Below, one piece after another: positions 9,351 to 25,510 of a DNA stretch of 40,000 nt. Within the stretch, counting starts at the first letter, position 1. Every line of letters starts with the position of its first letter. The DNA is from Solirubrobacterales bacterium (GTDB lineage Bacteria; Actinomycetota; Thermoleophilia; Solirubrobacterales; 70-9): contig JAWVFJ010000016.1 in the NCBI GenBank assembly GCA_033856275.1, positions 51,656 through 91,655 on the forward strand, written 5' to 3'. The position numbers and the translations under genes are program-made. The notes below the pieces were generated by a model that was given only the letters and a program-made list of their open reading frames with translations, searched no databases and was not told where the DNA came from.

Positions 9351-10114
9351 GGCGGCTCGAACCGGCGGCGATCGGCGGCGTGATGAGCCGCGAGCTGGCC
9401 AACTTCCGCACCTACTGGAAGGGCACGACCTTCTCCAGCGTGCTCGAACCGATCGTCTACCTGCTCGCCTTCGGCCTCGGGCTGAGCGCCACGCTCGTCG
9501 ACGAAGTCAACGGCGTCCCCTACATCGAGTTCGTCGGCACCGGCATGGTGGCGACGGCGGTGATCTTCTCCAGCGCCCTGCCGGCGATGTTCGGTACCTT
9601 CGTCAAGCACCGCTTCCAGAACACCTACGACGCGATCCTCGCCGCGCCGGTCGACGTCGAGGAGCTGGTCAGCGCCGAGATGCTCTGGATCGGCATCCGC
9701 TCCGGCACTTACGGCTGCGTCCCGCTGCTGGTCACGATCGGATTCGGCCTCGACCCGGCCTGGGGCATGCTGCTGGTGCCGCTCTTCTGCTTCGTCACCG
9801 CGCTCGGCTTCGCCGGTTTCGGCGTGGCGATGGCGGCGACCGTGGCCAAGATCGACCAGTTCAACTACGTCACCGCGCTCTGCATCACGCCGCTCTTCCT
9901 CGTCGCCGGCACCTTCTTCCCGATCGATGGCCTGCCCCAGGGCGTGCAGGTCGTGGCGCAGCTCAACCCGCTGCACCAGCTGGTCGAACTCGTCCGCGGC
10001 GGCGCCTTCGGCTTCGAGGCGGTCGACCTAGCCCGCTTCGCCTTCCTCGTCGGTTTCGCTCTGCTCACCTGGCGCGTAGCGATCAACCGCATGCAGGCGC
10101 GCCTGATCGACTGA
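9347..10114 (+). CDS. ABC-2 type transporter permease
   Basis: 255-aa six-TM ORF whose GTG start overlaps the ATPase stop (GTGA). The sequence style (FRTYWKG...LNPLHQLVELVRG) is typical of ABC-2/NodJ-like permeases. Confidence 0.85.
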   Translation: MRRLEPAAIGGVMSRELANFRTYWKGTTFSSVLEPIVYLLAFGLGLSATLVDEVNGVPYIEFVGTGMVATAVIFSSALPAMFGTFVKHRFQNTYDAILAAPVDVEELVSAEMLWIGIRSGTYGCVPLLVTIGFGLDPAWGMLLVPLFCFVTALGFAGFGVAMAATVAKIDQFNYVTALCITPLFLVAGTFFPIDGLPQGVQVVAQLNPLHQLVELVRGGAFGFEAVDLARFAFLVGFALLTWRVAINRMQARLID

Positions 10115-10124
10115 GCGCGCAGGC

Positions 10125-10169
10125 TGACTTCGCCTTTTGTCCCGGATAGCGAGACAAAAGGCGAAGTCA
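10125..10169 (+). terminator. 17-bp perfect stem hairpin after the ABC-2 operon
   Basis: TGACTTCGCCTTTTGTC (10125..10141) pairs with GACAAAAGGCGAAGTCA (10153..10169) across an 11-nt loop, 11 nt after the stop at 10114. No U-tract follows, so it may be a processing or factor-dependent element rather than a classic intrinsic terminator. Confidence 0.5.
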
Positions 10170-10243
10170 CCAGGAAGAAAATGGACCGTGCGCCCCGTCC
10201 TCCGAGACGAAGTCACCGGGCGTGTCCGTCGCGGTTGGCTCGA

Positions 10244-10337
10244 GCCGGGCTCGCCTGCGGCACCCGCGGCTTCCGCTTAAGGCTGCTTCCTTCCGGACCT
10301 GACCTGGTTCGCGTGCCTACGTCGCGCAGGACCCGGC
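10244..10337 (-). ncRNA. ffs: Signal recognition particle RNA, small bacterial (4.5S-like) type
   Basis: The plus strand at 10271..10298 reads GGCTGCTTCCTTCCGGACCTGACCTGGT. That is the exact reverse complement of the universally conserved SRP helix-8 core ACCAGGUCAGGUCCGGAAGGAAGCAGCC. The minus-strand ends GCCGGGUCCUGCG and CGCAGGCGAGCCCGGC pair to close a roughly 94-nt hairpin. Confidence 0.85.
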
Positions 10338-10485
10338 CGTCAACGCCGCCCGCGGCGCACTGACCCCGACGGCCAGCCCCTCGGAACGGGATTCGGCCCC
10401 GCTAGAGCGGATTGCGGGTTACAGGGCACCGCTGATTCCCCGCCTAGCACGGTCCGCGACCATCGTATCCGGCCACGGCGTCCGG

Positions 10486-10530
10486 TGAGTTCGCACTTAA
10501 TCGCGCATAGGGCGAATAAGTGCGAACTCA
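10486..10530 (-). terminator. 14-bp perfect stem hairpin just downstream of the secreted-protein gene
   Basis: TGAGTTCGCACTTA (10486..10499) pairs with TAAGTGCGAACTCA (10517..10530). It begins 8 nt past the minus-strand stop at 10538. Confidence 0.5.
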
Positions 10531-10537
10531 GCCGATT

Positions 10538-11614
10538 TCAGCGGCGGATCAGGCGGCGGTTCTTGACCACCGTCGCCGTCACTTTGCCGGCGCGGACTTT
10601 CTGGCGGACCAGTAGGCGCTTGCGCTTCGCCATCTGCTTACGGGCCTTCGGCTTGACCTTCAGCACGACCAGTCGCGACTTGCCGCTGCGCAGGTGGACC
10701 GTGCGCTTGCCGGTCGCCGGGCGGTTCTTGCGCAGCAGCCCCTGCGCCGTGGTCCGGCAAGCGTGGCCGATCTTGCGCGGGCAGTTGACCCGCACGAAGA
10801 GACGCCTGCCGTTGAGGACCGCCGTGCCAGGGGTCGCCTGGCGCAGCAGGTCCTCAAGCCGCTGCTCGTTCAGCGCGCCCCCACCATTGCCTTTGCCGCC
10901 TTTGCCTTTGCCGCTCGTGCCGTCGGACGCCGCGAGCACGACGTTGTCGTAATCGGCGCTACCGGTAACCAGAGCGCTGGTGCCAGTCGTGTAGCTGCTC
11001 ATGATCTGGATCCGGTAGTCATGCCCGGAGGTGAGGCTTTCGGGGTCGATCGAGCCGCGCGACACGTTGGTCCAGGAGTGAGCGCCGGCGAGCGTCGTCG
11101 CAGGGATCAGCGTCAGTGCCTCTCCCCCGTCGCTGGCATCGATCAGGCGCACCGTGTACTCGGCCGAGTTGCCCTCTACCGCGAGCAGTTTGTCGACACT
11201 GGCCCTGCGGTCGAGGGCGAAGCTGACCGCGGTCGCTTTTCCTCCGCCGGTGCCCGCGTAGGTGAACGGTGGGCTTTCCCAGGTCCCAGTTGTGGTACCA
11301 CCGACCGCGGTCGCACCGACCGCGCCGGTGTAGGCGGAGCGGACGAAGCCACCGCCGTCAGCGCCCCCTGCTCCCTGATAGCTGTTTTCGACGCTGGCGC
11401 AAAGGAGCGGCGCCAAGCAGTTGCCCTCTGTAGCCGACGAGGAGGTCCAACCGGCGGGACCACCACTGAATCCACGCGCGGCTCCGCCTGGCGGGTATTG
11501 GTTGGTCGCAGCACTTGTGGTCGCCGGAAGGACCAGCGAGAGCATCGCCAGGAAGGCGACAAAGGCAGCGGCGTTGCGGCGGGACGGTGAAAGGCGGGAC
11601 GGTGAAAAAACCAT
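10538..11614 (-). CDS. Secreted hypothetical protein with Lys/Arg-rich C-terminal tail
   Basis: 358-aa ORF with a signal peptide (AAFVAFLAMLSLVLPATTSAATN), a Gly/Thr/Ala-rich beta-type body, a GKGKGGKGNGGG spacer and a strongly basic C-terminal roughly 90 aa. No family recognised. Confidence 0.55.
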   Translation of the reverse strand: MVFSPSRLSPSRRNAAAFVAFLAMLSLVLPATTSAATNQYPPGGAARGFSGGPAGWTSSSATEGNCLAPLLCASVENSYQGAGGADGGGFVRSAYTGAVGATAVGGTTTGTWESPPFTYAGTGGGKATAVSFALDRRASVDKLLAVEGNSAEYTVRLIDASDGGEALTLIPATTLAGAHSWTNVSRGSIDPESLTSGHDYRIQIMSSYTTGTSALVTGSADYDNVVLAASDGTSGKGKGGKGNGGGALNEQRLEDLLRQATPGTAVLNGRRLFVRVNCPRKIGHACRTTAQGLLRKNRPATGKRTVHLRSGKSRLVVLKVKPKARKQMAKRKRLLVRQKVRAGKVTATVVKNRRLIRR

Positions 11615-12980: not shown

Positions 12981-13052
12981 GGGCGCGTAGCTCAGTGGGA
13001 GAGCGCTCGCCTCACACGCGAGAGGTCGCTGGTTCGAACCCAGCCGCGCCCA
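12981..13052 (+). tRNA. tRNA-Val (anticodon CAC)
   Basis: GGGCGCG TA GCTC AGTGGGA GAGC G CTCGC CTCACAC GCGAG AGGTC GCTGG TTCGAAC CCAGC CGCGCCC A folds as a canonical cloverleaf. The anticodon loop CU-CAC-AC gives anticodon CAC. CCA is not encoded. Confidence 0.95.
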
Positions 13053-13138: not shown

Positions 13139-13396
13139 GTGACTGAATCTGAAAGGAACCTCGTACCGAGCCCGGCCCTGGAGCCCCTGCTCTCGATCGA
13201 GGAGGTATCTGAACTCCTGCGGATCTCGGAGAGCGGGATCTACCGATTGCTGCGGCGAAGCCAGTTGGTGAGCGTCAAGGTCGGTGGCCGCACGCTCTTC
13301 GAGCCCGGCGCGATTCGGGCCTTCATCGCCGCCAGTCGTCGGGCCGGCAGCGCTGAGGGAGGTTCCGACATCCCCGACAACAAGGAGGCGGCATGA
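13139..13396 (+). CDS. Excisionase-family (Xis/AlpA-like) helix-turn-helix DNA-binding protein
   Basis: 85-aa [50 protein letters not shown] matches the excisionase-family HTH pattern. Its stop overlaps the queC ATG (ATGA at 13393..13396). Confidence 0.7.
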
Positions 13397-14097
13397 GCCA
13401 GGCAGAGAAAGCAGTCGTCCTCGTCAGCGGCGGCCTCGATTCCGCTACCGCCCTGGCAATGGCCAGGGACGAAGGCTTCGAGCCGTATGCGATCACGTTC
13501 CGATACGGCCAGCGCCACGGGGTCGAGTTGGAGGCCGCCAAGCGGGTGGTCGCGGCCGCAGGGGTCAGCGATCACATCGAGGTCGAGATCGACCTGCGGC
13601 GAATCGGCGGCTCTGCGTTGACCGCCGACATCGACGTGCCCAAGGGCCGTGACCTGGACGAGATGGCCGACGGCATCCCGATCACCTACGTACCGGCGCG
13701 CAACACGGTCTTCCTCTCCTTCGCGCTCGCCTGGGCCGAGGTGCTGGAGGCGGACCACATCTTCATCGGCGTCAACGCCCTCGACTACAGCGGCTATCCC
13801 GACTGCCGGCCGGAGTACGTCAAAGCCTACGAGCAGATGGCGAACCTGGCCACGAAGCGCGGGGTCGAAGGATCTCCGCTGAGGATCCACACGCCGCTGA
13901 TCGACCTGACCAAGGCGGAGATCGTCCGCCTTGGCACCGCACTGGGGGTCGATTACTCGATCACCCGCAGTTGCTATGACCCCTCCCCCGCGGGTGAGGC
14001 GTGCGGCGAGTGCGACTCCTGCCGGCTTCGGCTCAAGGGCTTTGCCGAGAACGGACTCGCCGATCCCGCCCCCTACCAGCTCGAGGCAGCGGCCTGA
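13393..14097 (+). CDS. queC: 7-cyano-7-deazaguanine (preQ0) synthase
   Basis: 234-aa ORF with the PP-loop [14 protein letters not shown], then FRYGQRH, and the C-terminal Zn cluster [24 protein letters not shown]. Confidence 0.95.
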
Positions 14098-14100
14098 GCG

Positions 14101-14850
14101 ATGGCGCTCCTCGCCGAAAAGCGAACCGAGGTCACCACCTTCCCGGTGATCGAGGTCTTCGGCCCGACGATCCAGGGCGAGGGTGCTGAGGCGGGTTTTC
14201 CCTGCCACTTCGTCAGGTTCGGCGGCTGTGACTACCGCTGCTCGTGGTGCGACACGATGTACGCGGTCGATCCTGATGAGGTTCGCCGCAACTCAAGTCG
14301 GCTGACTACCGCTGAGATCACAGAGCGAATCGAACGACTCGACGGCGCGCCGACCTGGGTCGTGCTCAGCGGCGGAAACCCCGCCCTGCACGAGCTGACC
14401 TCCCTCGTCGATGCCCTCCAGGCCCTCGGTCACAAGGTCGCGGTCGAGACCCAGGGGTCGGTCTGGCGGGACTGGCTTGGCACCGTCGACCGCTTGACGA
14501 TCTCGCCGAAGCCGCCCTCCTCCGGCATGGACAGCGAGGCGCACCGCGAGCAGTTCCAGCGATTCATGGCGAAGGCCGTCGAGAGAGGGGCCGACGGCGC
14601 AATTCTGAAGATCGTCTGCTTCGACGAGGTCGACGTGCGCTGGGCCTCGGATCTCTCGGCCTCCTGGCCGGCCTTCGATCTCTACCTATCGGCCGGAACC
14701 CCCGTCCCGGCTCCGGCCGACCTGCGGCAAGCAGTCACCGACCGCTTTCGCTGGCTCTGCGAGCGGACGGCCGGCGACGAGCGGCTGGCGAATGCGCGGG
14801 TCTTGCCGCAGTTGCATGTGCTCGCCTGGGGCGACGCGAGGGGCGTATGA
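14101..14850 (+). CDS. queE: 7-carboxy-7-deazaguanine synthase (radical SAM)
   Basis: 249-aa [43 protein letters not shown] carries the QueE CxxxCxxC-type cluster region. It sits between queC and queD. Confidence 0.9.
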
Positions 14851-15275
14851 GCGAGATAACCATCATCGACGAGCGCGCCGCACAAGCCGCGGGGGCCGTC
14901 ACGACCCGGGCCGAGATATTCCGTGAGTTCACCTTCGAGGCGGCGCACCGGTTGCCCAACGTACCTGAGGGACACAAGTGTGCACGCCTGCATGGTCACT
15001 CCTATCGGGTCGAGGTGAGGGTCAACGGTCAAGTCGGCGAGCAGACCGGTTGGGTCGTCGACTTTGCCGATATCAGCGCTGCTTTCAAGCCGATTCACGC
15101 AGAACTCGACCACCACTATCTGAACGAGGTGCCGGGCCTCGAGAATCCGACCAGCGAGGTCCTTGCCTGCTGGATCTGGGAGCGGTTGGCACCAAGCCTT
15201 TCCGGGCTCGCCGAGATAGTGGTGCGCGAGACCTGCACTTCGGGATGCTCGTACCGGGGGGTGACCGAAGCATGA
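14847..15275 (+). CDS. queD: 6-carboxy-5,6,7,8-tetrahydropterin synthase
   Basis: 142-aa ORF with [28 protein letters not shown] and WVVDFADI (the PTPS/QueD His triad region). It has ATGA overlaps at both ends. Confidence 0.9.
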
Positions 15276-16096
15276 ATCCCGCCGAGCAACTCGCCGCTCT
15301 CGGCGTCGAAGACGTGCAGGCGACGCGAGACGAGCGCGGTGTGCTCATCGACGAAGTGGGCATCGACGGGCTCTCATACCCGATCGCCGTGGAAGGTCGC
15401 GACGGCGACCGCCAGCAAACCGCGGCCGAGGTGAGCATGGCGGTGGAACTCGCCCACGATTCGCGTGGCGTTCACATGAGCCGCTTCGTCGAAGTGCTCG
15501 ATGCCCATGCCGCCGGCATGGGTCCCGATGGTTTTCGCGAGATGGTCAAGGCGACTCGGTACCGGCTCGGATCCGACTTCGCTCGGGTGAAGTTGGGCTT
15601 TCCGTACTTCCTGCGCCGCCGAGCGCCGACCAGCGAAATGCCCTCGATGGTCCGCTACGAGTGCACGCTCACCGGCGAATCGCGCGGCGAGGAGATCGCG
15701 ACCGAGGTCGGTGTACGGGTTGCCGTGACCAGCCTTTGTCCCTGCAGCAAGGAGATCAGCGACTACGGCGCCCACAACCAGCGTGGCTATGTCGAGATCT
15801 CCGCGACAAGCCCCTGGTCCGGTGGCGAAGCGTCCGGCATCTGGTTCGAGGACCTGGTCGACGTCGCCGAGGCGGCGGCGTCGGCGCCGATCTATCCCCT
15901 GCTCAAGCGCAGCGACGAGCGCACGGTGACGATGCAGGCCTACGACAAGCCCGCCTTTGTGGAGGACATCGTCAGGGACATCGTTGTGGCCTTGCGCACC
16001 GACGTTCGGGTTGCCAAAGCGCGCGTCCGCGCCTCCAACCAGGAGAGCATCCACGACCACAACGCGGTCGCCCAACTGCAGTGGGAGCGCCGGTGA
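15272..16096 (+). CDS. folE2: GTP cyclohydrolase I type 2 (FolE2/MptA family)
   Basis: From ATG 15272: ...[17 protein letters not shown]...[16 protein letters not shown]...[27 protein letters not shown]... These blocks ([20 protein letters not shown]) are typical of FolE2. The track ORF from 14978 is an over-extension overlapping queD. Confidence 0.8.
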
Positions 16097-16755
16097 GCGA
16101 GCGGCGCTCCATCCTGGCGATCACATCCTGCACCGGCCTGAAGACAATCGGGGACGGCGGCGCCAGCCTCCCCGCCGAGCGGCTTTACGCCGGCGAGCAA
16201 CACCGCCGGTTGATGCAGGGCGTCGACTATTTCCGGGCCTCGTCCTCTGGGCATGAACTCGACCTGCGGATCCTCTCGGCCGGTCACGGTGTCGTCGCCG
16301 GCGACCATCGGCTTCGGCACTACGACTCCTCCTTCGCCGCACTGGGCAAGGCGGAGATCGACGAGCGAGCCGCCGAGCTCGGCGTCCCAGGGCAGATCGA
16401 GCAGTTGCTCTCGCGCCCATACGCCCTCGTCCTCGTACTGCTGGGCGACGATTACATGCGCGCTGCCGCGATCGACAGCGACACCCAATTCTCAAGCCCG
16501 ACCATCGTCTTCTGCGGCGAGCGACTTGCCCGACGCTTGCAGGGAGTGCCTTCTCTTAAGCTCGTGCCGGCCGACAAGCGGCAGACACGTCGCTTTGCCT
16601 GTGGCCTCGTCGGCTTGAAGGGGGAGTTGGGGGGACGGCTCTTGCGCCTGCTCGCCGATGATCCCGGCCTCCTCCCCAAGGTTTCCGACCCCGGACTCGA
16701 CCTGCTCGCCATGCTCGACGCGGCAAGCGTCCGCCCACTCGGGGCCGCCGCGTGA
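16093..16755 (+). CDS. Hypothetical protein coupled between folE2 and dpdA; weak YaaA/DUF328-like pattern, possible DpdC-type accessory enzyme (tentative)
   Basis: The GTG at 16093 overlaps the folE2 stop (GTGA) and its own stop overlaps the dpdA GTG (16752). The 220-aa product is [17 protein letters not shown]...PAERLYAGEQHRRL...LRILSAGHGVVAGDHRLRHYDSSF. The LRILS-G-G...L..Y block recalls YaaA/DUF328. This is by-eye resemblance only. Confidence 0.5.
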   Translation: MSERRSILAITSCTGLKTIGDGGASLPAERLYAGEQHRRLMQGVDYFRASSSGHELDLRILSAGHGVVAGDHRLRHYDSSFAALGKAEIDERAAELGVPGQIEQLLSRPYALVLVLLGDDYMRAAAIDSDTQFSSPTIVFCGERLARRLQGVPSLKLVPADKRQTRRFACGLVGLKGELGGRLLRLLADDPGLLPKVSDPGLDLLAMLDAASVRPLGAAA

Positions 16756-17984
16756 AGTTCTATTTCCCCGACAGCCAGGATCAGATCGACCCGAGCTTCC
16801 CCTTCGAGAGCGAAGTGCGGTCGCCGCTGCGCGTACGTCAGCGCGACGACCGCTACGCGCACGAGTTCCTCAAGCCCCCGCCCTACGAAGGCCTGCTGGT
16901 CTCCAAGGCGATGATCGACGGCAACGGAGGGGCCGGTCGCTACAGCGCCCAGCAGCGGCAGCGCTTCTTCCGCGAAGGCGTCAGGGAGTTCTTTCGCCTC
17001 GACCAGTCGGCCGGACCGCGCATCGAGACTCTGGGTGACTGCGGCGCCTTCGGCTACATCGACGAGCCGCTGCCGCCGTACAGCACCGACCAGGTGATCG
17101 ACTTCTACGAGCAGGCCCGCTTCGACGCCGGCGTCTCAGTCGACCACGTGATCCCGGTCTTCGACGACGACGTGGATTCCTCCTGGAAGGACCGCTACAC
17201 GTTGACGTTGGGTCTGGCTGAGGAGTTCCTCGACCGCCACCGTGAGCGGGACTGCCGGTTCGAACCCGTAGGCGTGGCCCAGGGCTGGAGCGCGGCCACC
17301 TACGCCAACGCGGTGGGGCACCTGCAGAAACTGGGCTACGAGCGAATCGCGATCGGCGGCCTCGTCCCGCTCAAGACCGATGAGATCCTCCGCGTCCTGG
17401 CGGCGATAGACGAGATTCGCCATCCCCATACGAAACTCCACCTGTTTGGGGTGACCCGCTGTGAGCACGTTCCCCGCTTCAAGGGCCACGGCGTGACCAG
17501 CTTCGACAGTACCTCGCCGTTTCGGCGCGCTTTCAAAGACGGCACGGACAACTACTACGTGCTCGATCGCGCCTTCGTCGCCCTGCGCGTGCCGCAGGTC
17601 GAGGGCAACGCGAAGCTGCAGGCGCGAATCGGCGCGGGAGAGATCGACCAGGGGAAAGCTCGCAAGCTCGAGCAGGAGGCCCTGGCCGCGCTGCGCGCTT
17701 TCGACCGCGGCAAGGAAAGCCTCGAGAAAGCCCTGGAAAAGCTCTGCGACTACCAGGACCTCCACGACGAAGGACACGCCCGGCACGAGCAGTACCGTGA
17801 AACGCTCGCCGACGCACCTTGGCGCGAATGCAAATGCAATGTCTGCAGCAGCGCCGGCATCGAGGTTGTCCTCTTCCGGGGCAGTGAGCGCAACAAGCGG
17901 CGGGGCTTCCACAACCTCCACGTATTCGCTCAGCGCCTCGCACAGGAACTACAGCCCCAAGACACCGCGCTCGCAGCGGCATAA
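16752..17984 (+). CDS. dpdA: DpdA-type tRNA-guanine-transglycosylase paralog (7-deazaguanine DNA transglycosylase)
   Basis: 410-aa ORF with N-terminus MKFYFPDSQDQIDPSFPF and TIM-barrel TGT-like blocks (GDCGAFGY, IAIGGLVPLK, LHLFGV). The TGT zinc motif CKCNVC...HNLH is present. It is embedded in a preQ0 biosynthesis operon next to a DGQHR protein. Confidence 0.85.
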   Translation: MKFYFPDSQDQIDPSFPFESEVRSPLRVRQRDDRYAHEFLKPPPYEGLLVSKAMIDGNGGAGRYSAQQRQRFFREGVREFFRLDQSAGPRIETLGDCGAFGYIDEPLPPYSTDQVIDFYEQARFDAGVSVDHVIPVFDDDVDSSWKDRYTLTLGLAEEFLDRHRERDCRFEPVGVAQGWSAATYANAVGHLQKLGYERIAIGGLVPLKTDEILRVLAAIDEIRHPHTKLHLFGVTRCEHVPRFKGHGVTSFDSTSPFRRAFKDGTDNYYVLDRAFVALRVPQVEGNAKLQARIGAGEIDQGKARKLEQEALAALRAFDRGKESLEKALEKLCDYQDLHDEGHARHEQYRETLADAPWRECKCNVCSSAGIEVVLFRGSERNKRRGFHNLHVFAQRLAQELQPQDTALAAA

Positions 17985-17993
17985 GGAGAAGAA

Positions 17994-19130
17994 GTGGCCA
18001 AATACGAGATGCGCGTCCCAGCTCTGGCCGTCCGGCAGGGAGAGAGGTTGCTCTACAGCTTCGCGATCGACGGCAAGACGTTGCCGCTGTTCACGACGGT
18101 CTCCCGCGTTCACCGCGACGAGGATCGCAAGCTGGGCGGTTACCAGCGGCCGGAGGCCCTCGCCCACATCGCGGCGATCAAGCGCTACCTCGAGACCGCC
18201 GATGCGGTGCTGCCCAACGCGCTCGTCATCGCCTTCGACGGGCGTGTCAAGTTCAAGAAGAGCCCGGGCGGTGGCGGTGGTGTCACCACGCAGGGCGAAA
18301 TCGTCATCCCCGTGGACGAGAAGCTCGCCGACGAGGACAAGCCGGGCTGGATTGTCGATGGCCAGCAGCGCTCGGCGGCGATCCGCGAAGCGAACGTCGA
18401 GGGATTCCCCGTCTTCGTCACTGCGTTCGTCACCGACAGCGTCGAGGAGCAACGCTCGCAGTTCATCCTGGTCAACTCGACCAAGCCCCTGCCCAAGGGG
18501 TTGATCTATGAGTTGCTGCCGGCGACTCCCGAAGCCGACCTCCCGGTCGCCCTGCTGCGTCGGCGCTATCCCGCCCTCCTGCTGGAGCGACTCAACTTCG
18601 ACGACGACTCGCCGATGCGTTCCCGGATCCGCACCCCAACGACGGCCGGTGGCACGATCAAGGACAACTCGATCCTCAAGATGCTCTCGGCCAGCATCGA
18701 GGACGGCGCGCTCTACCAGTACTTCGACAGCGGGACCGGTAGCGGCGATACAGAGGCGATGCTCGAACTGCTGAAGAACTTCTGGACCGCCGTCGAAGAG
18801 TGCTTCCCAGACGAGTGGGAGGAGTCGCCCCGGCGCTCCCGCCTCGTCCACGGCGTCGGCATCGCCAGCCTGGGCTGCCTGATGGACGAGATCACCTATG
18901 TGAGCGGCCCGGGACGCGTCCCCACCAGCGACGAGTTCGCCGAGGAGCTGCGGCTGATCAAAGGTCAGTGCCACTGGACGAAAGGCAACTGGAAGTTTGC
19001 CGGCGGCGACAGTTGCGCCTGGAACGAACTGCAGAACACGCCCAAAGACATCCTCCGCCTCAGCGACCACCTGCTGCGCCTGTATCGAGAGGCTCGGGGA
19101 TCGACCGAAGAGCAACGTCAGGCTGCCTGA
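17994..19130 (+). CDS. dpdB: DGQHR-domain (DndB-like, ParB superfamily) protein, DpdB-type
   Basis: GTG start preceded by AAGGAG (17983..17988). 378-aa ORF: ALAVRQGERLLYSFAIDGKTL...LGGYQRPEALAHIAAIKRYLE...LPNALVIAF...GWIVDGQQRSAAI...SQFILVNSTKPL, the DGQHR/DndB architecture. Confidence 0.8.
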   Translation: MAKYEMRVPALAVRQGERLLYSFAIDGKTLPLFTTVSRVHRDEDRKLGGYQRPEALAHIAAIKRYLETADAVLPNALVIAFDGRVKFKKSPGGGGGVTTQGEIVIPVDEKLADEDKPGWIVDGQQRSAAIREANVEGFPVFVTAFVTDSVEEQRSQFILVNSTKPLPKGLIYELLPATPEADLPVALLRRRYPALLLERLNFDDDSPMRSRIRTPTTAGGTIKDNSILKMLSASIEDGALYQYFDSGTGSGDTEAMLELLKNFWTAVEECFPDEWEESPRRSRLVHGVGIASLGCLMDEITYVSGPGRVPTSDEFAEELRLIKGQCHWTKGNWKFAGGDSCAWNELQNTPKDILRLSDHLLRLYREARGSTEEQRQAA

Positions 19131-19149
19131 GCCGCCCTCCGATGTCACG

Positions 19150-19491
19150 GTGAACCGATCCGAAGCGAACGAGTCTCTCCGTGCCCTGCACAAACGAGCG
19201 CATGCCGAGCTCCAACAGCTCAAGGACCGCCAGCACCGCCTTGAGCGCCTGATCGAGTTCATCGACGAGTACGGGGCGGGGAAACCCAAGCGCGCGCGGA
19301 AGAGACGACAGGTAAGAGCGAGGTCGCCTTCGCTGCTCGAGGTGATCGGCGACCGGCCTGGCGTGCGCAAGAGCATGCTCGCGATGGTCATGGACCGCTC
19401 GCCGGAGGAGGTTGGCGCGGAACTCGAATACCTAGAGCGAGAAGGCAGCATCCGCCGCGACGGATTGGGGTGGTCAAGGGCCGACCAATAG
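19150..19491 (+). CDS. Small coiled-coil plus winged-helix-like protein (start uncertain)
   Basis: Read in the track ORF frame (18997..19491) from the first start after the dpdB stop, GTG 19150. Sequence: VNRSEANESLRALHKRAHAELQQLKDRQHRLERLIEF...SLLEVIGDRPGVRKSMLAMVMDRSPEEVGAELEYLEREGSIRRDG, which looks like a MarR/ArsR-style wHTH. No obvious SD. Confidence 0.45.
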   Translation: MNRSEANESLRALHKRAHAELQQLKDRQHRLERLIEFIDEYGAGKPKRARKRRQVRARSPSLLEVIGDRPGVRKSMLAMVMDRSPEEVGAELEYLEREGSIRRDGLGWSRADQ

Positions 19492-19563
19492 CGGCGTAGC
19501 CATTGTTTTGGATCGTGCCTATCTATGTGCTATTTTTTTGGCACACGGATAGAAGGAGGCGCG

Positions 19564-20823
19564 ATGTCAACCCATCTCGAAGAGCACAAAGCCGTTCCCC
19601 TCGAGGCCCTTTTCCTCGACGCGAACAACCCTCGCCTGGCGCCGGAGAATCCGCCGGGATACGAAGATGCCGACGCCCTCTTCGATCCCGAGGTTCAAAA
19701 GGAACTGCAGGAGCGGGCCAAGGAGTCGTTCGATCTCGACAGCCTCGAGGCGGCAATGGTCGGTCAGGGATGGCTGCCGATCGATTCGATCCTGGTATGG
19801 GAGCACCCTGACGAACCGGGAAAGTTCGTCGTGGTCGAGGGCAACCGCAGACTGGCGACGTTGCGGCTGCGCATTCTGCCGCGTCTCGCCAAAGCCAAAA
19901 CCAAGCTGGAAAAAATGGGGGGAGGCGGCCGGAGCAAGCGCTACACGGCAGGCGACGTGGAGCAGCAAGAAGCGGAAATCGCCCGGCTCGAGCGCCTGCA
20001 GGACGAAACCGATCCGCTGGCGGTCCTGAAGGTCACGGCCGCCACGCCGACGGAGCTCGACCAGACCCTGAACCGCATCCTCGCCGTGCGCCACATCACC
20101 GGCCCCAAGGAATGGGGTAACTACGCGGAGGACATCTGGCTACTGCGGCGCTACCGCGACCTCTTCGACCGGCGATTCCCCGGGGAGCAGCTGCGCTGGG
20201 AGCCGTCGACGATCGGTCAGGTGGCGGACGAGGCTTCCCTGTCTCCGGTCATGACCAAGCGCCATCTGCGGGCGGCGAGCGCGTTTGGACGCTTCCGCGA
20301 CGACTTCGAAGATGACCTGCCCAACGAAGAAAGCTTCGAAGAGGGCGACTACTACCTCTTCGAGCTGATCGCGCAGCAGCCGTTCGCACGCGAGAAGTTC
20401 GGCCTCGGCGAGGATCTCCTGGGCCTGCCCGAGGACAAGGCGCAGATCCTCTTCGACTGGGTCTTCAAGGAGCCCCGGCCCCAGAAGGCCGCCGACAACC
20501 CAAACGTCTTCTACCGCCACGAGAACATCAGGCTCTGGGGCCAGATGAAGAAATACGACGAGAGCAACGGCACCACGTTCGCCGATCGCTTCGACGTCAC
20601 CGATCACAAGAACGCGCCGTCGATGCACTCGGTCGAGGCCGACTTCCACTCCCACAAGGCCCGCAAGACCCCGATCGACGTCCTCGACTCCCTCCTCACT
20701 CAGCTCAAAGAACTGGATGCGGAGACGATGATGGCCGAGGGCGAGTTCCTCCACAAGCAGCTGGAAATGCTCGAGACGCGAATCGAGAAGCTGCTGCGGA
20801 TGGTCGAGGCGGCGGAAGGCTGA
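19564..20823 (+). CDS. ParB/Srx N-terminal-domain protein (second ParB-like protein of the island)
   Basis: ATG 19564 lies 5 nt after a strong SD GAAGGAGG (19552..19559), following an AT-rich gap. Sequence: MSTHLEEHKAVPLEALFLDANNPRL...FVVVEGNRRLATLRL (ParB-type GxRR box), then about 300 aa with no recognisable domain. The track start at 19525 is likely an over-extension. Confidence 0.65.
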   Translation: MSTHLEEHKAVPLEALFLDANNPRLAPENPPGYEDADALFDPEVQKELQERAKESFDLDSLEAAMVGQGWLPIDSILVWEHPDEPGKFVVVEGNRRLATLRLRILPRLAKAKTKLEKMGGGGRSKRYTAGDVEQQEAEIARLERLQDETDPLAVLKVTAATPTELDQTLNRILAVRHITGPKEWGNYAEDIWLLRRYRDLFDRRFPGEQLRWEPSTIGQVADEASLSPVMTKRHLRAASAFGRFRDDFEDDLPNEESFEEGDYYLFELIAQQPFAREKFGLGEDLLGLPEDKAQILFDWVFKEPRPQKAADNPNVFYRHENIRLWGQMKKYDESNGTTFADRFDVTDHKNAPSMHSVEADFHSHKARKTPIDVLDSLLTQLKELDAETMMAEGEFLHKQLEMLETRIEKLLRMVEAAEG

Positions 20824-20826
20824 CGG

Positions 20827-23229
20827 ATGGTCCGGCGCCGTATCGACGACCCTGAGATCCGCCCGCTGATCGACCGCTTGGCGACCCTCTTCCTCCGCGA
20901 GGGAAGCGTCAACCGGGTGCAGCAACTGTTGGTGGCGCAGCTCGCCGACGACAGGAGCGAGGGATACGTCCACTCCAACCGGCTGCACGCTCTGCTCAGC
21001 GAGGACCCGGCGAAGTCCGTCAACCCGAGCACTCTCCGCACCATCGAGACCGCGGTCGAGCGGCTCGACCCCGAGGGGGAGGGGAGCATCCCGGCATCCG
21101 CCGCAGCGTTGAAGGACGAGGTGGCGGGCCGCTGGCCTGGGACGGTGGCCAGCGTGCCGGGCGGAACCTCCGCGGAGCGAATCCGCCATCTTGCCGCGGA
21201 GATCAACGTCCCGCCGGGGGTCGTCAGCCTGCTGCTCGACGCCGGCACCGCCGATGCCGGCGACCGTTCTGCCGCTCGCCGAGACACCACGATCGCAACC
21301 GTTCGCAGCCCGGATTGGTCATTCCAGGACACCGCCTACGAGCGCTGTGTGAGGGCCCTTGCCGGCGGTCCGAATGAAAAGGTCGGCCTGGTCCTACCCA
21401 CTGGCGGCGGCAAGACCCGGCTGGCCATTCGCATCATGCTCCAGGTGCTCGACCGAGCCGAGTCCGAGAACCCCGTCGTTGTCTGGGTGACGCATCGTAA
21501 GCAGCTTCGAACCCAGGCCACGCGCGAGCTCCAACGCGCGATCAACCTGGGAACTCCGGACCTACCGGCTCACGCTACGGCTCTGCTGGCGGGCCAGGTC
21601 GAGATCTGCATGGTCTCGAAGCTCGCCGAGACGCTGGATCGTCACGCCGGACGGGTGGCGCTGGTCGTCGTCGACGAGGCCCACCACGCCGCGGCCGAGT
21701 CGTATAGGCCGATCTTCGACCGGACTCCGCAGCGGGGGCTCTTCCTCACGGCGACCCCCAACCGGACCGACTCGATGCCGATCGGCGTCGACCAGATCGC
21801 CTATGCGACTACCTACCGCGATCTGTTCGACAGAGGGGTGATCGTCGAGCCCGTCCTCGACGAGCTGACCATCGACGGATTCGACTGGAATCTGGCCGAG
21901 CGGGTCGAGGAGCTCGCCGCCTATCTTCTCGACGAGGCGGGCGACCGTTTCCTGAAGACCCTGGTCGTCGTCTCGCGGGTTGAGAACGCCGAGCGCCTCC
22001 ACGAGGCCCTCCTCCGACTGCTCTCCTCCGACCATGTCTTGAACGAGGAGGACATCGGGTTCGCGCACGGCAGCGGCAGTTCGACCGGCCAGGGCATCCA
22101 GGACTTCCTCGACGAGTTCCAGGCACGCCCGCGCGGGATCTTGATCGCAACCAGCCAACTACTGGGAGAGGGCTTCGACGATCCGAGTGTCGACAGCACA
22201 GTCATCACCTACCCCACGCAGAGCGTTCTCGACCTGATGCAGGTCGCCGGGCGCTGCATGAGGTACGCCCCGGGCAAGCACAAGGCTTTCGTCGTCCAAG
22301 TGCGAGATTCCGCGCTCACGTACCACTGGGAGCAGGGATGGCTCTACCAGGACATTTCCGACGCGCTCCGCCCGCGCCTCGAAACCGTGCCCTTTACCGG
22401 CGGCAGGGATCTGGAAACCACCATCGCGGACATCCTTACCTCCCACAACGTCTCGCGGCCGGTGCGCAAAGCGGCGCTCGAGGCCGCGTCGAACCTCGAC
22501 GTCAACGACCGATTCTCATTGCTCCTCACGGGCCTTCCCTACGGGGGTCCCGCTGACCGATTCGACGTCGACGCCCAGTGGGGGGCCGTTTTCGTGACCC
22601 CCGAGGAGCGCGATCTGTTCGTGCGGGTGTTCAACGGCTATTCGGAGCGTTACACCGAGATCAACGACAAGAAGGCGTTTCTCGAGCAGTACATCTCGGT
22701 CGACCACCAGCCCGGTAGCCGCTGGCGCCGGTACATGGACATGCTCGCGGCCATGGAGGCAGCCGGAACCGAACGCCGCGGTGAAACTTTTGCCCTCGCC
22801 TCATCGCGGCCGAACAACACGGAGACTGGAACGACATGGCTTACATACATCACCTTCGTCTACGAACCGGCCCTGCCGATCGATCTCGAGGCCTTTCTGG
22901 CAGACGCCGTCAACCGCAAGGAAGTTGCCGACATGTTTCTCGACGATCCCACTGCATGGAGCCTCGCGGTGAAGGCGCCCCTGCCGCTGGACGGCAGCCT
23001 TGCCGCGCTTGTCTCCGACGCCGGGGCCGATTGGGTCGAGCGGGAACGCAAAGCACTCAGAAGCCATCTGGGGTCTGCGGACCAGCGCCAGACCTTCGGT
23101 GCGCTGGCAGCCTGGCGGACGGAACTCGACGGCGAATCCCCTCTGCCTCAATTCATGCTCGACCGCTTCGAGTTGCTGCTTGCCGACGAGGGATGGACGC
23201 ACTTCGCGCTTTCGTTGGACAATTCTTAG
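20827..23229 (+). CDS. DEAH-box SF2 helicase (ResIII + Helicase_C core) with unassigned N- and C-terminal domains
   Basis: 800-aa ORF with motif I LVLPTGGGKTRLA, motif II VVDEAHHAAA, motif III LTATPNR, and motifs V/VI ILIATSQLLGEGFDDP and QVAGRCMR. The roughly 170-aa N-terminal and roughly 300-aa C-terminal regions are unrecognised. It starts 4 nt after the ParB-like stop. Confidence 0.8.
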   Translation: MVRRRIDDPEIRPLIDRLATLFLREGSVNRVQQLLVAQLADDRSEGYVHSNRLHALLSEDPAKSVNPSTLRTIETAVERLDPEGEGSIPASAAALKDEVAGRWPGTVASVPGGTSAERIRHLAAEINVPPGVVSLLLDAGTADAGDRSAARRDTTIATVRSPDWSFQDTAYERCVRALAGGPNEKVGLVLPTGGGKTRLAIRIMLQVLDRAESENPVVVWVTHRKQLRTQATRELQRAINLGTPDLPAHATALLAGQVEICMVSKLAETLDRHAGRVALVVVDEAHHAAAESYRPIFDRTPQRGLFLTATPNRTDSMPIGVDQIAYATTYRDLFDRGVIVEPVLDELTIDGFDWNLAERVEELAAYLLDEAGDRFLKTLVVVSRVENAERLHEALLRLLSSDHVLNEEDIGFAHGSGSSTGQGIQDFLDEFQARPRGILIATSQLLGEGFDDPSVDSTVITYPTQSVLDLMQVAGRCMRYAPGKHKAFVVQVRDSALTYHWEQGWLYQDISDALRPRLETVPFTGGRDLETTIADILTSHNVSRPVRKAALEAASNLDVNDRFSLLLTGLPYGGPADRFDVDAQWGAVFVTPEERDLFVRVFNGYSERYTEINDKKAFLEQYISVDHQPGSRWRRYMDMLAAMEAAGTERRGETFALASSRPNNTETGTTWLTYITFVYEPALPIDLEAFLADAVNRKEVADMFLDDPTAWSLAVKAPLPLDGSLAALVSDAGADWVERERKALRSHLGSADQRQTFGALAAWRTELDGESPLPQFMLDRFELLLADEGWTHFALSLDNS

Positions 23230-23443: not shown

Positions 23444-24454
23444 GTGGGTCTCTTCCGCAAGGACCGAGAGGCGCGTTCAAAGACCAAGGTGCCGGCACCG
23501 AACTCGGTGGACGCCGACAGGCAGAAGCATGAAGACGCGGCCGCTGCGCCTCTTCCGGCTCAGCTCCTTTGGCTCATCGATGCGCCGATGTTCATCGACG
23601 AGCACCGGGTCGAGGCTTTCTACGACGCCATTCTTCGACCCGACTTCGAAGGCGCCAGCCTGACGCTCTCCGAGTCGCTGACCAAAGGCCGAACCTTCAG
23701 TGGCGGTATGACGGTGGGCGCGGCGTTGCCATGGCTGGTCAAAGCGGAGGGAAAGGCAGAAGCGGCAAGCAGCAGGCAGAAGGCGCGCGGTCAGGAGGCG
23801 ACGCTGCACCGCGTGATCAATCCCTACCGCCATCTACTCGCCCTCGCGATTCACTACGCGACCCAGCAAGAGTTTCAGCACCGACTCGTCTTCGCCCAAC
23901 CCACCACAGCGAAAGACGCCGCCGCAACTGACGTCTCATCGACCTGGACAACGGATTCCTTCAGCCGCGAGTCGCCCCGGGCGATCGTGGTCCTGGACCT
24001 GCCAGAGGGGACACCATTGATTCCACTGGCGGCCGAGACCACGGAGGGCAAGGTCGTGCCGGTGTACAAGCAACTTGCCGCGCGCCTGCAGAGGCCGGGA
24101 CAGCGAGCATTGCCCGAGTTCGTCAGGCGTGACAAGCCCAACTACCTGCAGGGCCAGCGCGACTACTGGCGTTGGTTCGCCGAGTTCTTCGATCCCCAAG
24201 TGGCGATTGAGGTCGTCGAGGAGGCTTCGGAGTCCGGTCGGTTTGCTTGGATCGCCTTTAGGCTTCCGGTCGGGTCCGTCGACCCCCTCCAGGCTGAGAC
24301 GTTTCTCCATCTCCACATCTCACCGCGAGGGGAATACGACACCGGGGTCGTCGCCTACAACTTCATCGCGCGCGGTTACGAGCACGGCGTGAGGATCGTT
24401 GGAACATTGAAGTCCGATCCCGACCTCAACGTCCTCGCCGTGTTCGAGCGCTAG
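23444..24454 (+). CDS. Hypothetical protein (no recognisable domain)
   Basis: 336-aa ORF (GTG start; alternative ATG at 23588) after a visibly AT-rich 200-bp gap. G/C-rich third codon positions support coding. No motif recognised by eye. Confidence 0.5.
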   Translation: MGLFRKDREARSKTKVPAPNSVDADRQKHEDAAAAPLPAQLLWLIDAPMFIDEHRVEAFYDAILRPDFEGASLTLSESLTKGRTFSGGMTVGAALPWLVKAEGKAEAASSRQKARGQEATLHRVINPYRHLLALAIHYATQQEFQHRLVFAQPTTAKDAAATDVSSTWTTDSFSRESPRAIVVLDLPEGTPLIPLAAETTEGKVVPVYKQLAARLQRPGQRALPEFVRRDKPNYLQGQRDYWRWFAEFFDPQVAIEVVEEASESGRFAWIAFRLPVGSVDPLQAETFLHLHISPRGEYDTGVVAYNFIARGYEHGVRIVGTLKSDPDLNVLAVFER

Positions 24455-25510
24455 TTAGTAGTACCGGGTCAGCTCAAGCGGCAGGGGAAACTCGACCGCC
24501 TGGATGCAGGCGCCGTAGAACGGGCACCGCAACGCGGTCGCCGGGTCGAGGCAGACGGGATCGATGTCGGTGCAATTGACGCGGTTGAGCCAGAATTTGT
24601 TGTCGAGGATGGCTCCGGAGAGCCCGGTGCGCTCGGCGATCGCGACGAAGGCGACGAGGGCCAGCCTCCGCAACTCCAGCGCCTCCTCGCCCGACAGCAG
24701 ACGGCTCGCCTTCAGCTTCTGCTCCAGTCGCGGCTCCGGGCGGAGCATTCCTTGGCGCAGGGCGTGTCTCAACAGGTGGTAGTCGATCGCCGGCAGTGGC
24801 TCGTCCCTGAACTCGAAGACCCCGCTGCCCGAAAGCAAGATCGCGTTGAGCATGGTCAGCTTGAAGATCGGGTCGTCGAACGCCCGGAATCCCCGTGACA
24901 ACTCGGCGAATCGCACGAGTGAGCCCCCCGTCTCCTCGAGCAGGTTGAGAAACTCCCCATTCCACTCGGCCAGCAGGTGTCGACCGAGGTCCCGCAGGTT
25001 GGCGAGACGATCGTCCGCCCCTATCGCAAGCGGGTTGAGCCCGGTGTCGTCGCTGAAGATCGCATCGAAGTCGCTCTCGCTCATCGTCGCCAGGAAGCCG
25101 GCGTCGAGGATCCGGCCCCCACCCCGGTCCAACTCACGACGCAGCGCCCTCCACATGTACATCGCGCCGCGGTACGTCGTGCCGTCCAGCGTGCCCACCG
25201 CGGGAGCCATGCTCTCCCCTTCGAGTCGCCAAAAGCGGAAGTTGATCGAATTTCCGACGGCGAAGAACTGCGAGCGCTCAGACCTGTTCCCAGCGACGTT
25301 CCAGAAGAGGTCGTCATCCCAGCTCGCGGGTTCGAACTCTCGAAAGTCGGGCGTGCTCGCGATTTGCCGCGCAATCGCTTCCACCTGGCGCCAATCGATC
25401 TCGGCCAGGCCGCCAGTCGATTGATCGATTCCGAGAGCGATGCTAAGTCCGGCAGTGCTCAAGCCGGAGCTCTCGGTGCCGACAAACCTGGTCGCCATTG
25501 CATTGCCCAT
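24455..25510 (-). CDS. Queuosine-salvage family protein (DUF2419 / Qng1-like N-glycosidase fold)
   Basis: 351-aa ORF. FFAVGNSINFRFW, YRGAMYMWRAL, IFKLTMLNAILL, AIDYHLLRHALRQGMLRP...LLSGEEALELRRLALVAFVAI and the terminal TRYY follow the block order I recall for the Q_salvage family. By-eye assignment only. Confidence 0.6.
   Translation of the reverse strand: MGNAMATRFVGTESSGLSTAGLSIALGIDQSTGGLAEIDWRQVEAIARQIASTPDFREFEPASWDDDLFWNVAGNRSERSQFFAVGNSINFRFWRLEGESMAPAVGTLDGTTYRGAMYMWRALRRELDRGGGRILDAGFLATMSESDFDAIFSDDTGLNPLAIGADDRLANLRDLGRHLLAEWNGEFLNLLEETGGSLVRFAELSRGFRAFDDPIFKLTMLNAILLSGSGVFEFRDEPLPAIDYHLLRHALRQGMLRPEPRLEQKLKASRLLSGEEALELRRLALVAFVAIAERTGLSGAILDNKFWLNRVNCTDIDPVCLDPATALRCPFYGACIQAVEFPLPLELTRYY

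Follow-up and report, generated by a model that had tools for sequence, protein, structure and literature searches.

On profile and structure-model comparisons, the 351-residue protein encoded at one end of a Dpd island in the 40,000-nucleotide stretch of Solirubrobacterales DNA analysed here (the window) is a member of the Q_salvage/Qng1 superfamily. Judging from its sequence and genomic linkage, we propose with moderate confidence that this divergent protein is an active N-glycosidase that would release the base from a 7-deazaguanine mononucleotide, and that together with the 336-residue partner encoded beside it, it would form an accessory module of the island. To our knowledge, no bacterial restriction-modification system other than Dpd is known to be built on 7-deazaguanines; the components described for it are DpdA-K and the genes for the synthesis of 7-cyano-7-deazaguanine (preQ0). 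The two genes in question are:

23444..24454, + strand: partner protein of 336 residues, a conserved neighbour
24455..25510, - strand: Q_salvage/Qng1-superfamily protein of 351 residues, of a Dpd-linked Cys4 subfamily (Pfam, HHalign and AlphaFold2 (AF2)/Foldseek comparisons)

The open reading frame (ORF) of the Qng1-like gene starts with ATG, and its product is 100% identical to a protein annotated as hypothetical in a Solirubrobacterales metagenome-assembled genome (MAG); the GC content of the window is high (~62-70%). An earlier note on this DNA had described a 351-residue minus-strand frame that abuts the 336-residue gene stop to stop, and the stop-codon coordinates bear this out: TAG at 24452-24454 (336-residue gene, + strand) touches TAA at 24455-24457 (Qng1-like gene, - strand). 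The motifs quoted there, NSINFRFW, YRGAMYMW, AIDYHLLRHALRQGML and a terminal TRYY, are all present in the translation.

Family membership, fold and active site

Membership in Q_salvage (DUF2419), as suggested in the earlier note, was recovered by a hidden Markov model search, in which Pfam PF10343 matched at 49.6 bits (cut-off 25). This match aligned residues 78-213 with profile positions 9-141 of 285 and thus covered the N-terminal half of the profile only, compared to 248 bits over the full length for a canonical homolog on the same model. When the protein was compared with the PDB by phmmer, the Sphaerobacter and human Qng1 structures were matched over residues 36-213 only. A profile of 55 subfamily members aligned with PDB 7u07 over residues 20-293 of the Sphaerobacter enzyme (StQng1; E 1.6e-15), and an HHalign comparison of the subfamily with canonical Qng1-like proteins gave a probability of 100% and an E-value of 4e-47 over 304 columns, running from the N-terminus to the last residue. 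Modelling pointed in the same direction: the AF2 model (predicted local distance difference test score, pLDDT, 92.1; predicted template-modelling score, pTM, 0.89) was matched by Foldseek to the solved Qng1 structures 7uk3, 7u1o and 7ugk with template-modelling (TM) scores of 0.67-0.79 and E-values of ~1e-12, the next-best matches being the helix-hairpin-helix (HhH) DNA glycosylases AGOG, MutY/MUTYH and EndoIII. The predicted structure thus has the two-lobe, HhH-derived fold of Qng1. Taken with the homologs at 36-77% identity, these E-values put the family assignment well outside what chance would give. A profile search of 1.84 billion representative proteins returned 1010 relatives, 44 of them at E <=1e-30, and the superfamily comprises the present subfamily, other Cys-rich branches and a Cys-free canonical branch.

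The active site of Qng1 has been dissected in StQng1, where D231 is the nucleophile, Y232 stacks on the ribose, N72 acts as proton relay and D298 and W302 bind the 7-deazaguanine ring (PMC9881137). The C-terminus takes part as well: the terminal Tyr, Y323, and its carboxylate belong to the active site, in which the carboxylate touches the ribose 3'-OH of the substrate, and the enzyme loses its activity when tagged at the C-terminus (PMC9881137). We transferred these residues through the profile and HHalign alignments, with roles taken from Hung et al. 2023 (PMC9881137), and scored their conservation across a non-redundant set of 36 complete homologs (36-77% identity; GC content of their loci 28-69%). 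StQng1 K199 corresponds to K217 of the window protein, I203 to L221 (Val or Leu across homologs), D231/Y232 to D243/Y244, N72/F75/W76 to N90/F93/W94, D298/W302 to D303/W307 and the C-terminal Y323 to Y351. K217, D243, Y244, N90 and D303 are invariant in 36/36 homologs and W307 is conserved in 35/36, and the mapped residues as a whole, together with the terminal TRYY, are invariant or nearly so. The comparison with the solved active site that had been suggested in the earlier note therefore finds the catalytic and base-binding residues kept, and near-invariance of the catalytic residues across very distant homologs argues for an active enzyme with the mechanism of Qng1. The corresponding segments of the gene are:

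24779..24862, - strand: active-site core, K217 to D243-Y244 (alignment to StQng1, invariance in 36 homologs)
24458..24469, - strand: C-terminal TRYY with the stop codon directly after it (translation)

TRYY or a near variant ends nearly all homologs that are complete at the 3' end, the exception being L007, whose C-terminus is frameshifted (L numbers designate the loci collected in this study). In this locus (L007 10001-11040, an Actinomycetota MAG) the Qng1-like gene is split in two frames near residue 295, and no dpd genes were detected nearby; it may represent a decaying copy or an assembly error.

A Cys4 insert and other departures from canonical Qng1

Relative to canonical Qng1-like proteins, the subfamily carries a 23-residue insertion between the W307 helix and the C-terminal tail, in which four Cys are invariant:

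24506..24574, - strand: Cys4 insert CTDIDPVCLDPATALRCPFYGAC, C313-X6-C320-X8-C329-X5-C335, putative [4Fe-4S] or metal site (alignment)

The tails of canonical Qng1-like proteins are ~20 residues shorter and have no Cys. While the window protein has a middle spacer of X8, distant members of the subfamily, mycobacterial ones included, show C-X6-C-X2-C-X5-C exactly, which we take as the ancestral spacing of the motif. C-X6-C-X2-C-X5-C is also how the [4Fe-4S] ligands are spaced in EndoIII and MutY. When the Cys segment was searched as a 46-column profile, EndoIII, MutY, MUTYH and MIG were the top PDB matches, all aligned on the cluster Cys, and although the E-values were marginal (0.009-0.3), the hit list was strikingly uniform. 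Searching the PDB with the window protein's own C-terminus yielded a spurious match only, and a profile built from X2-spaced members was needed. Most likely, on sequence grounds, the Cys4 site holds a [4Fe-4S] or other metal centre with a structural or redox role. The paper describing the Qng1 structure never mentions iron or cysteine (PMC9881137), and a full-text literature search found no published link between the Qng1/DUF2419 family and iron-sulphur (Fe-S) clusters.

We note that most non-canonical Q_salvage branches have Cys-rich inserts before the terminal Tyr (C-termini of proteins P0203-P0352), for instance C-X7-C-X2-C-X5-C in '...CPEMxEPxCxxC...LFQPVxRTTxY' or 6-8 Cys in 'GRxCC...' types, whereas canonical Qng1-like tails read '...HHLTxTTAY' and lack Cys. 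Overlooked Fe-S or metal sites may accordingly be widespread in the Q_salvage family. In one Cys4-bearing branch, a PfkB-family kinase is fused to the N-terminus of the Q_salvage domain (P0276, P0295, P0301 and P0332, each of ~600 residues, and P0278, of 425 residues). The kinase that makes the 5'-monophosphate substrate of Qng1 is still to be identified (PMC9881137), and the fusions suggest this PfkB branch as a candidate family for it.

Other features likewise set the protein apart. The β4-β5 hairpin that is inserted in the HhH motif of Qng1 (StQng1 R185-Y198) is shortened by a 9-residue deletion in the HHalign alignment, and DSSP assigned no strands to the site of the hairpin, residues 206-216, in the AF2 model, so that this hallmark of canonical Qng1 is missing. 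Among the StQng1 phosphate ligands R80, K233 and Q306, K233 is replaced by H245 (H in 29/36 homologs) and R80 has no conserved counterpart; the invariant R92, N309 and R310 lie near the phosphate-ligand positions in the sequence. In the cyclopentenediol pocket (P46, W48, H53, Y93, W94, W299), W48 is retained as W64, while Y93/W94 are replaced by A116/M117 and W299 by N304, positions at which bacterial canonical-like proteins vary as well. For the same reason we dropped the D69 to N87 and Y93/W94 changes as a sign of a non-queuosine substrate, since canonical-like bacterial homologs have the same substitutions.

By contrast with the hairpin, four of the five insertions that are specific to Qng1 and obstruct the DNA cleft are still present according to the model and alignments (the β1/β6 sheet, the β2-β3 hairpin, helix α12 and the C-terminal tail). 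The protein is acidic, with a median isoelectric point (pI) of 5.4, and has an acidic Cys loop, CTDxDPVC. In EndoIII and MutY, the loop at this place is basic and makes contact with DNA. An open basic DNA cleft with a basic Fe-S loop, as in EndoIII and MutY, is thus not what we found, given the acidic loop and the cleft-filling elements. Nor do we file the protein as a Qng1 orthologue, because the hairpin hallmark of the HhH motif fails and the phosphate ligands and the specificity pocket give no clear answer. The 'Qng1 homolog' of the earlier note therefore stands as to superfamily, though not as canonical Qng1, given the Cys4 insert and the partial loss of the HhH hairpin, neither of which that note mentions.

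Recurrent linkage to Dpd loci

To assess the genomic setting of the family, we assembled 59 loci from exact-protein look-ups and from pattern scans of genomes, metagenomes and viral contigs. The loci were searched with the proteins of the window by tblastn and jackhmmer, and selected neighbours were annotated with Pfam and NCBIfam. The scans gave 44 non-redundant homolog groups, 27 of which had at least 5 kb of flank and are referred to as informative; the statistics derive mostly from metagenomic contigs found via two peptide patterns, the scan of genome contigs having given 5 loci only. In 18 of the 27 informative groups the locus contained DpdA/DpdB/DpdC, preQ0-synthesis or canonical restriction genes, while three were ambiguous and six had nothing of the kind; one of the 18, L037, has canonical restriction genes only (DpdD, 374 bits; DpdJ, 1480 bits; DpdK; DpdH). 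The exact-protein look-ups were Dpd-linked in 9/9 cases, with L053-L059 coming from look-ups made after the scans, which added linked loci. Linkage with dpdA, dpdB and preQ0 genes thus recurs, as is characteristic of an accessory component of Dpd. The link to a DNA-deazaguanine system drawn in the earlier note is upheld by the Dpd genes that adjoin homologs in many unrelated genomes, and the adjacency, far from being unique to one genome, recurs widely.

At least four different putative effector modules occur alongside the modification module QueC-QueE-QueD-FolE2-DpdC-DpdA-DpdB: a 432-residue PD-Lambda-5_A-like protein with a ResIII helicase (window), UvrD with PDDEXK (L002/L004/L053), the canonical DpdD/H/J/K (L037), and an extra DndB-like protein with HNH (L056/L058). 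Whatever the effector type, it is the modification and preQ0 genes that the Qng1-like gene accompanies. In L029 it comes immediately after dpdA-dpdB, in the same orientation, and in L049 it comes after dpdA; in the archaeon Ca. Nitrosopumilus salarius a 40%-identical homolog is encoded beside QueC, QueD, a DUF6884 protein and a large helicase. No NCBIfam Dpd model and no PADLOC model matches either the Qng1-like protein or its partner, and no published link between DUF2419/Qng1 and dpd genes was found in a full-text literature search.

No homolog of the Qng1-like protein was found in sequenced phages or plasmids by tblastn. The only match in the viral collection, L051 4344-7938 (IMGVR_UViG_3300038648_000070), has a 42%-identical Qng1-like gene; a 577-residue protein with a Mom-family DNA-modification domain ends ~700 bp upstream, and a sigma-70-like gene lies ~550 bp downstream. 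In L043 the Qng1-like gene is adjoined by a gene (9124-10779, - strand) for a 551-residue protein that matches DUF5591 only, with a radical SAM gene, a Shedu SduA_C nuclease gene and a gene for a 1615-residue helicase also among the neighbours. DUF5591 is associated with archaeosine tRNA-guanine transglycosylase (TGT)-type enzymes, and the 551-residue protein may be a highly divergent DpdA analogue.

A conserved partner and a two-gene module

In 22 of the 27 informative groups the Qng1-like gene is adjoined by a homolog of the 336-residue protein (33-78% identity), which makes this protein a conserved partner and not, as the earlier note had it, simply the last gene of the island. Close relatives have the two genes in convergent orientation, their stops abutting or overlapping, and in more distant ones the genes are co-directional. 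Searches of Pfam, NCBIfam, PADLOC, PHROGs and the PDB sequences gave no match to the partner, and its AF2 model (pLDDT 83) has no Foldseek match with E <0.1. We considered it as a T-fold base binder, in view of a C-terminal α-β-β-α-β-β arrangement with weak Foldseek similarity to GTP cyclohydrolase I, and rejected this candidate (HHalign probability against FolE2/QueD below 1%).

Two related islands, L055/L012 and L059, share the left flank of the window (DnaX, an ABC transporter, a Na+/H+ exchanger and tRNA-Val). There the pair lies between the tRNA and HTH_17-queC, with the same tRNA-Val directly upstream of it in L055/L012; in the window the pair follows the helicase gene at the opposite end. 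The pair thus moves between the ends of the same tRNA-Val-bounded island, which implies island cargo that changes position as a unit. The earlier note describes the Qng1-like gene as convergent on a DNA-deazaguanine system; the gene is not an outsider to the island, as the two-gene module is itself cargo (L055/L059).

The two genes have also been found in other company. In Mesorhizobium (L052 10001-10894, GCA_006443055.1), a partner homolog of 32% identity lies directly after queE-queD-queC and also adjoins DpdD, a PLD-like nuclease gene and a large DEAD-box helicase gene, a set resembling canonical DpdD/K/J; no Q_salvage gene was found within 10 kb of it. This occurrence in a Dpd cluster marks the partner as a Dpd-island gene in its own right. 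In Mycobacterium bohemicum DSM 44277 and Mycolicibacterium sp. CR10 (L008 and L009, 10001-11860), the pair is co-directional and stands alone, and no dpd or que genes were found within 10 kb of it. The two mycobacterial loci have only the pair in common, their surroundings being otherwise unrelated: the pair of L008 adjoins an IrrE/helix-turn-helix (HTH) gene and an rve transposase gene. In another locus, L032, the pair adjoins a STAND NTPase and a methyltransferase.

The Dpd island of the window

Outside the pair, the island, which is a complete Dpd-type one, and its border comprise the following features:

12981..13052, + strand: tRNA-Val(CAC), likely integration site and left border of the island (ARAGORN)
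13139..13396, + strand: small HTH_17-type (excisionase/MerR-like) gene, first of the island (ORF; HTH_17 syntenic in L004, L055 and L059)
13393..14097, + strand: QueC, preQ0 synthase (Pfam QueC 257 bits, TIGR00364 206 bits)
14101..14850, + strand: QueE, radical SAM 7-carboxy-7-deazaguanine (CDG) synthase (TIGR03365 252 bits)
14847..15275, + strand: QueD (Pfam PTPS 131 bits, TIGR03367 115 bits)
15272..16096, + strand: FolE2-type GTP cyclohydrolase, GCHY-1 (syntenic PF02649 genes in L002, L004 and L055; tblastn 52-74% identity)
16093..16755, + strand: DpdC-like, DUF6884 (weak DUF6884 match of 24 bits, weak PADLOC DpdC match; syntenic in all related islands)
16752..17984, + strand: DpdA, DNA-guanine transglycosylase (NF041059 554 bits, cut-off 200; PADLOC DpdA 560 bits)
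17994..19130, + strand: DpdB, DGQHR/ParB-like ATPase (NF041060 470 bits, cut-off 300; PADLOC DpdB 483 bits)
19138..19491, + strand: conserved small ORF after dpdB, ~116 residues, start codon not fixed (tblastn 39-45% identity to its equivalents in L055/L012, L001 and L004)
19525..20823, + strand: 432-residue putative effector subunit with PD-Lambda-5_A-like N-terminus (PADLOC E ~1e-11; PHROG families of unknown function; syntenic in L001, L012 and L057)
20827..23229, + strand: 800-residue ResIII/DEAD helicase, putative restriction motor (Pfam ResIII, DEAD and Helicase_C; PADLOC PbeA-like and type IV REase-like)

The ~116-residue ORF after dpdB is highly charged, has no family match and occupies the same position in L001, L004 and L055/L012. 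GC content is slightly below that of the flanks from ~13 kb to 25.5 kb, a stretch that includes the Qng1-like ORF. Neither a direct repeat of the 3' end of tRNA-Val (attR) nor an integrase gene was found in the window, and a search for promoters and terminators around the pair found no consensus sites.

Proposed reaction and alternative explanations

If the protein acts as we propose, a mononucleotide would be bound in a closed pocket and its N-glycosidic bond hydrolysed as in Qng1, giving the free base and (deoxy)ribose-5-phosphate. The substrate would be a (deoxy)nucleoside 5'-monophosphate bearing preQ0 or 7-amido-7-deazaguanine (ADG) rather than queuosine-5'-monophosphate, and could come either from DNA turnover, as dPreQ0- or dADG-5'-monophosphate, or from adventitious phosphoribosylation of free preQ0, as preQ0 ribonucleotides. 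The freed base would rejoin the pool used by DpdA, with ADG being returned to preQ0 by the island's QueC, whose chemistry includes the re-dehydration of ADG to preQ0; by the same token, the reaction would serve sanitation, in keeping 7-deazaguanine nucleotides out of the substrate pool of polymerases. As the terminal carboxylate of StQng1 contacts the ribose 3'-OH, the substrate would need a free 3'-OH, that is, be a mononucleotide or a 3' end, which would exclude an internal DNA residue. A mononucleotide is further favoured by the chain ending at the conserved Tyr, given that C-terminal extensions inactivate StQng1, by the retention of four of the five elements that fill the DNA cleft in Qng1 and by the acidity of the protein and its Cys loop. 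The PfkB fusions of the sister Cys4 branch imply a path from nucleoside to nucleoside monophosphate to free base, with the kinase preceding the glycosidase, and indicate that a Cys4 motif is compatible with a nucleotide substrate. Salvage would not be foreign to Dpd islands either: the preQ0 transporter gene yhhQ is embedded in some dpd clusters (PMC5699537), and this known salvage function favours nucleotide salvage here, akin to yhhQ as a salvage-type 7-deazaguanine accessory gene, although YhhQ belongs to an unrelated transporter family and imports the free base. The same reaction, from modified dNMP to base and deoxyribose-5-phosphate, and the same logic of pool sanitation apply to the 2'-deoxynucleoside 5'-monophosphate N-glycosidases DNPH1/Rcl, which have been cited as functional analogues of Qng1 (PMC9881137); they have an unrelated Rossmann-like fold, and no sequence or structure similarity to them was found.

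Several observations weigh against this proposal. The islands already encode de novo synthesis of preQ0, which leaves unclear what flux salvage would serve. The EndoIII/MutY-type Cys4 motif moves the protein towards true HhH DNA glycosylases, as does the 9-residue shortening of the hairpin inserted in the HhH motif, and two phosphate ligands of StQng1 are not kept, R80 and K233, the latter being H245. Six informative loci, two mycobacterial genomes among them, carry the pair without dpd genes within 10 kb, suggesting that it can work without a resident Dpd system.

Some of these features would be expected of an enzyme that flips 7-deazaguanines out of DNA and excises them with the help of an Fe-S domain, in the manner of EndoIII and MutY, an explanation that we regard as possible but doubtful. 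Such an enzyme might erase or edit Dpd marks or, like the Dag glycosylases, attack phage DNA whose 7-deazaguanine differs from the host mark, the partner being a specificity, immunity or nuclease subunit. The HhH superfamily fold, the AGOG, MutY and EndoIII matches that follow Qng1, the alignment of the Cys4 motif with the cluster motif of EndoIII/MutY and the shortened hairpin are in keeping with it, as are the stand-alone pairs in mobile or defence-type contexts (Mycobacterium, L032), L008 and L009 sharing the pair only. There is also a precedent in the HhH 'Dag' enzymes, which were recently reported to excise 7-deazaguanines from phage DNA (bioRxiv 10.1101/2025.10.29.685425). Against it speak the strictly terminal TRYY and the retained cleft-blocking insertions, which point to a closed mononucleotide pocket, and the acidity of both the protein and its cluster loop. 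Such an enzyme would moreover attack the DNA of its own host unless its specificity differed from the host mark, the gene tracks modification rather than effector genes across at least four effector types, and phage and plasmid collections and PADLOC yielded no homolog. That the Qng1-like protein and its partner together are an Fe-S-dependent remover of 7-deazaguanines from DNA, and as such either the first enzyme to erase or edit Dpd marks or an antiviral module of two portable genes, is in our estimate unlikely; a module directed against phages camouflaged by 7-deazaguanines would, however, explain the stand-alone mycobacterial copies. Between the two functional ideas of the earlier note, we thus favour, from the sequence features above, base release from nucleotides over direct action on duplex DNA.

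Less likely than a DNA glycosylase are two further roles. The protein might be a non-hydrolytic sensor or regulator that binds a free 7-deazaguanine base or nucleotide, possibly through a redox-sensitive Fe-S centre, and tunes the modification and restriction modules of Dpd. The abutting or overlapping stops of the convergent pair would permit antisense coupling, the position beside HTH_17 or MarR genes varies among loci and the partner has no enzymatic signature; nonetheless, invariance of the Qng1 catalytic machinery in very distant homologs is what selection for catalysis predicts, and Pfam and NCBIfam scans detected no DNA-binding or signalling domain, so that we consider a sensor improbable. 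More improbable by far is ordinary salvage of queuine or queuosine for tRNA, with adjacency to Dpd genes arising by chance or through a shared pool of queuosine precursors. It accords with the Pfam Q_salvage match and with the queuine salvage performed by the bacterial Qng1 of Sphaerobacter (PMC9881137), yet the adjacency is seen in dozens of unrelated loci and at varied positions of the island, no tRNA tgt, queA or queG was found nearby, and housekeeping flanks are not conserved, with L008 and L009 having the pair alone in common. The protein also belongs to a distinct branch by its Pfam score (49.6 vs 248 bits), Cys4 insert and hairpin deletion.

Relation to known enzymes

Set beside the systems it most resembles, the window protein shares with Qng1/QNG1 (DUF2419, PF10343; 7UK3, 7U1O, 7U91, 7UGK), the queuosine-5'-monophosphate N-glycosidase, the two-lobe HhH-derived fold (TM 0.70-0.78), the catalytic Lys and Asp-Tyr, the proton-relay Asn, the Asp/Trp pair that binds the ring and the Tyr-ended tail. 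It differs in having only ~21% identity to Qng1, in the 23-residue Cys4 insert, the 9-residue β4-β5 deletion, the change of K233 to His and the loss of R80, and in residing in a DNA-modification island with a dedicated partner instead of serving tRNA queuine salvage. With the [4Fe-4S] glycosylases EndoIII (Nth) and MutY it has in common the superfamily fold (Foldseek E 1.5e-3 to 0.3) and, in distant subfamily members, the identical C-terminal C-X6-C-X2-C-X5-C, whereas the middle spacer of X8 in the window protein, the acidic loop between Cys1 and Cys2, the pI of ~5 and a DNA cleft predicted to be filled by Qng1-type insertions and the tail separate it from them.

The Dag glycosylases, which we compared by description only, have in common with the present family the HhH superfamily, the 7-deazaguanine link and a location in mobile or defence islands (bioRxiv 10.1101/2025.10.29.685425). 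They occur in Vibrio integrons and act on DNA, and the preprint makes no mention of Q_salvage-type proteins (bioRxiv 10.1101/2025.10.29.685425). The present family, by contrast, is embedded in a self-modifying Dpd module, and the catalytic numbering of Dag1 (K118, D132, D184, W188) suggests a smaller protein.

Implications

Release of a 7-deazaguanine at the nucleotide level, the probable activity of this Dpd-linked relative of Qng1, would be a role not yet described for the family. To the inventory of Dpd genes the analysis adds two accessory ones whose wide conservation stretches from Actinomycetota to Thaumarchaeota and which annotation and defence-system model sets lack, and it provides the first genomic tie of the Qng1 family to the 7-deazaguanine biology of DNA rather than of tRNA. 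It predicts a new metabolic step, in which preQ0 or ADG would be released from (deoxy)nucleotides for recycling or for cleaning of the nucleotide pool. Judging by the EndoIII-type Cys4 motif, there may be many Fe-S enzymes still to be recognised among the non-canonical Q_salvage proteins, and the motif provides an evolutionary link from DNA glycosylases to nucleotide hydrolases. Should excision from DNA prove to be the true function, the Q_salvage superfamily would represent a still-living intermediate form that connects Fe-S DNA glycosylases with enzymes of nucleotide salvage.

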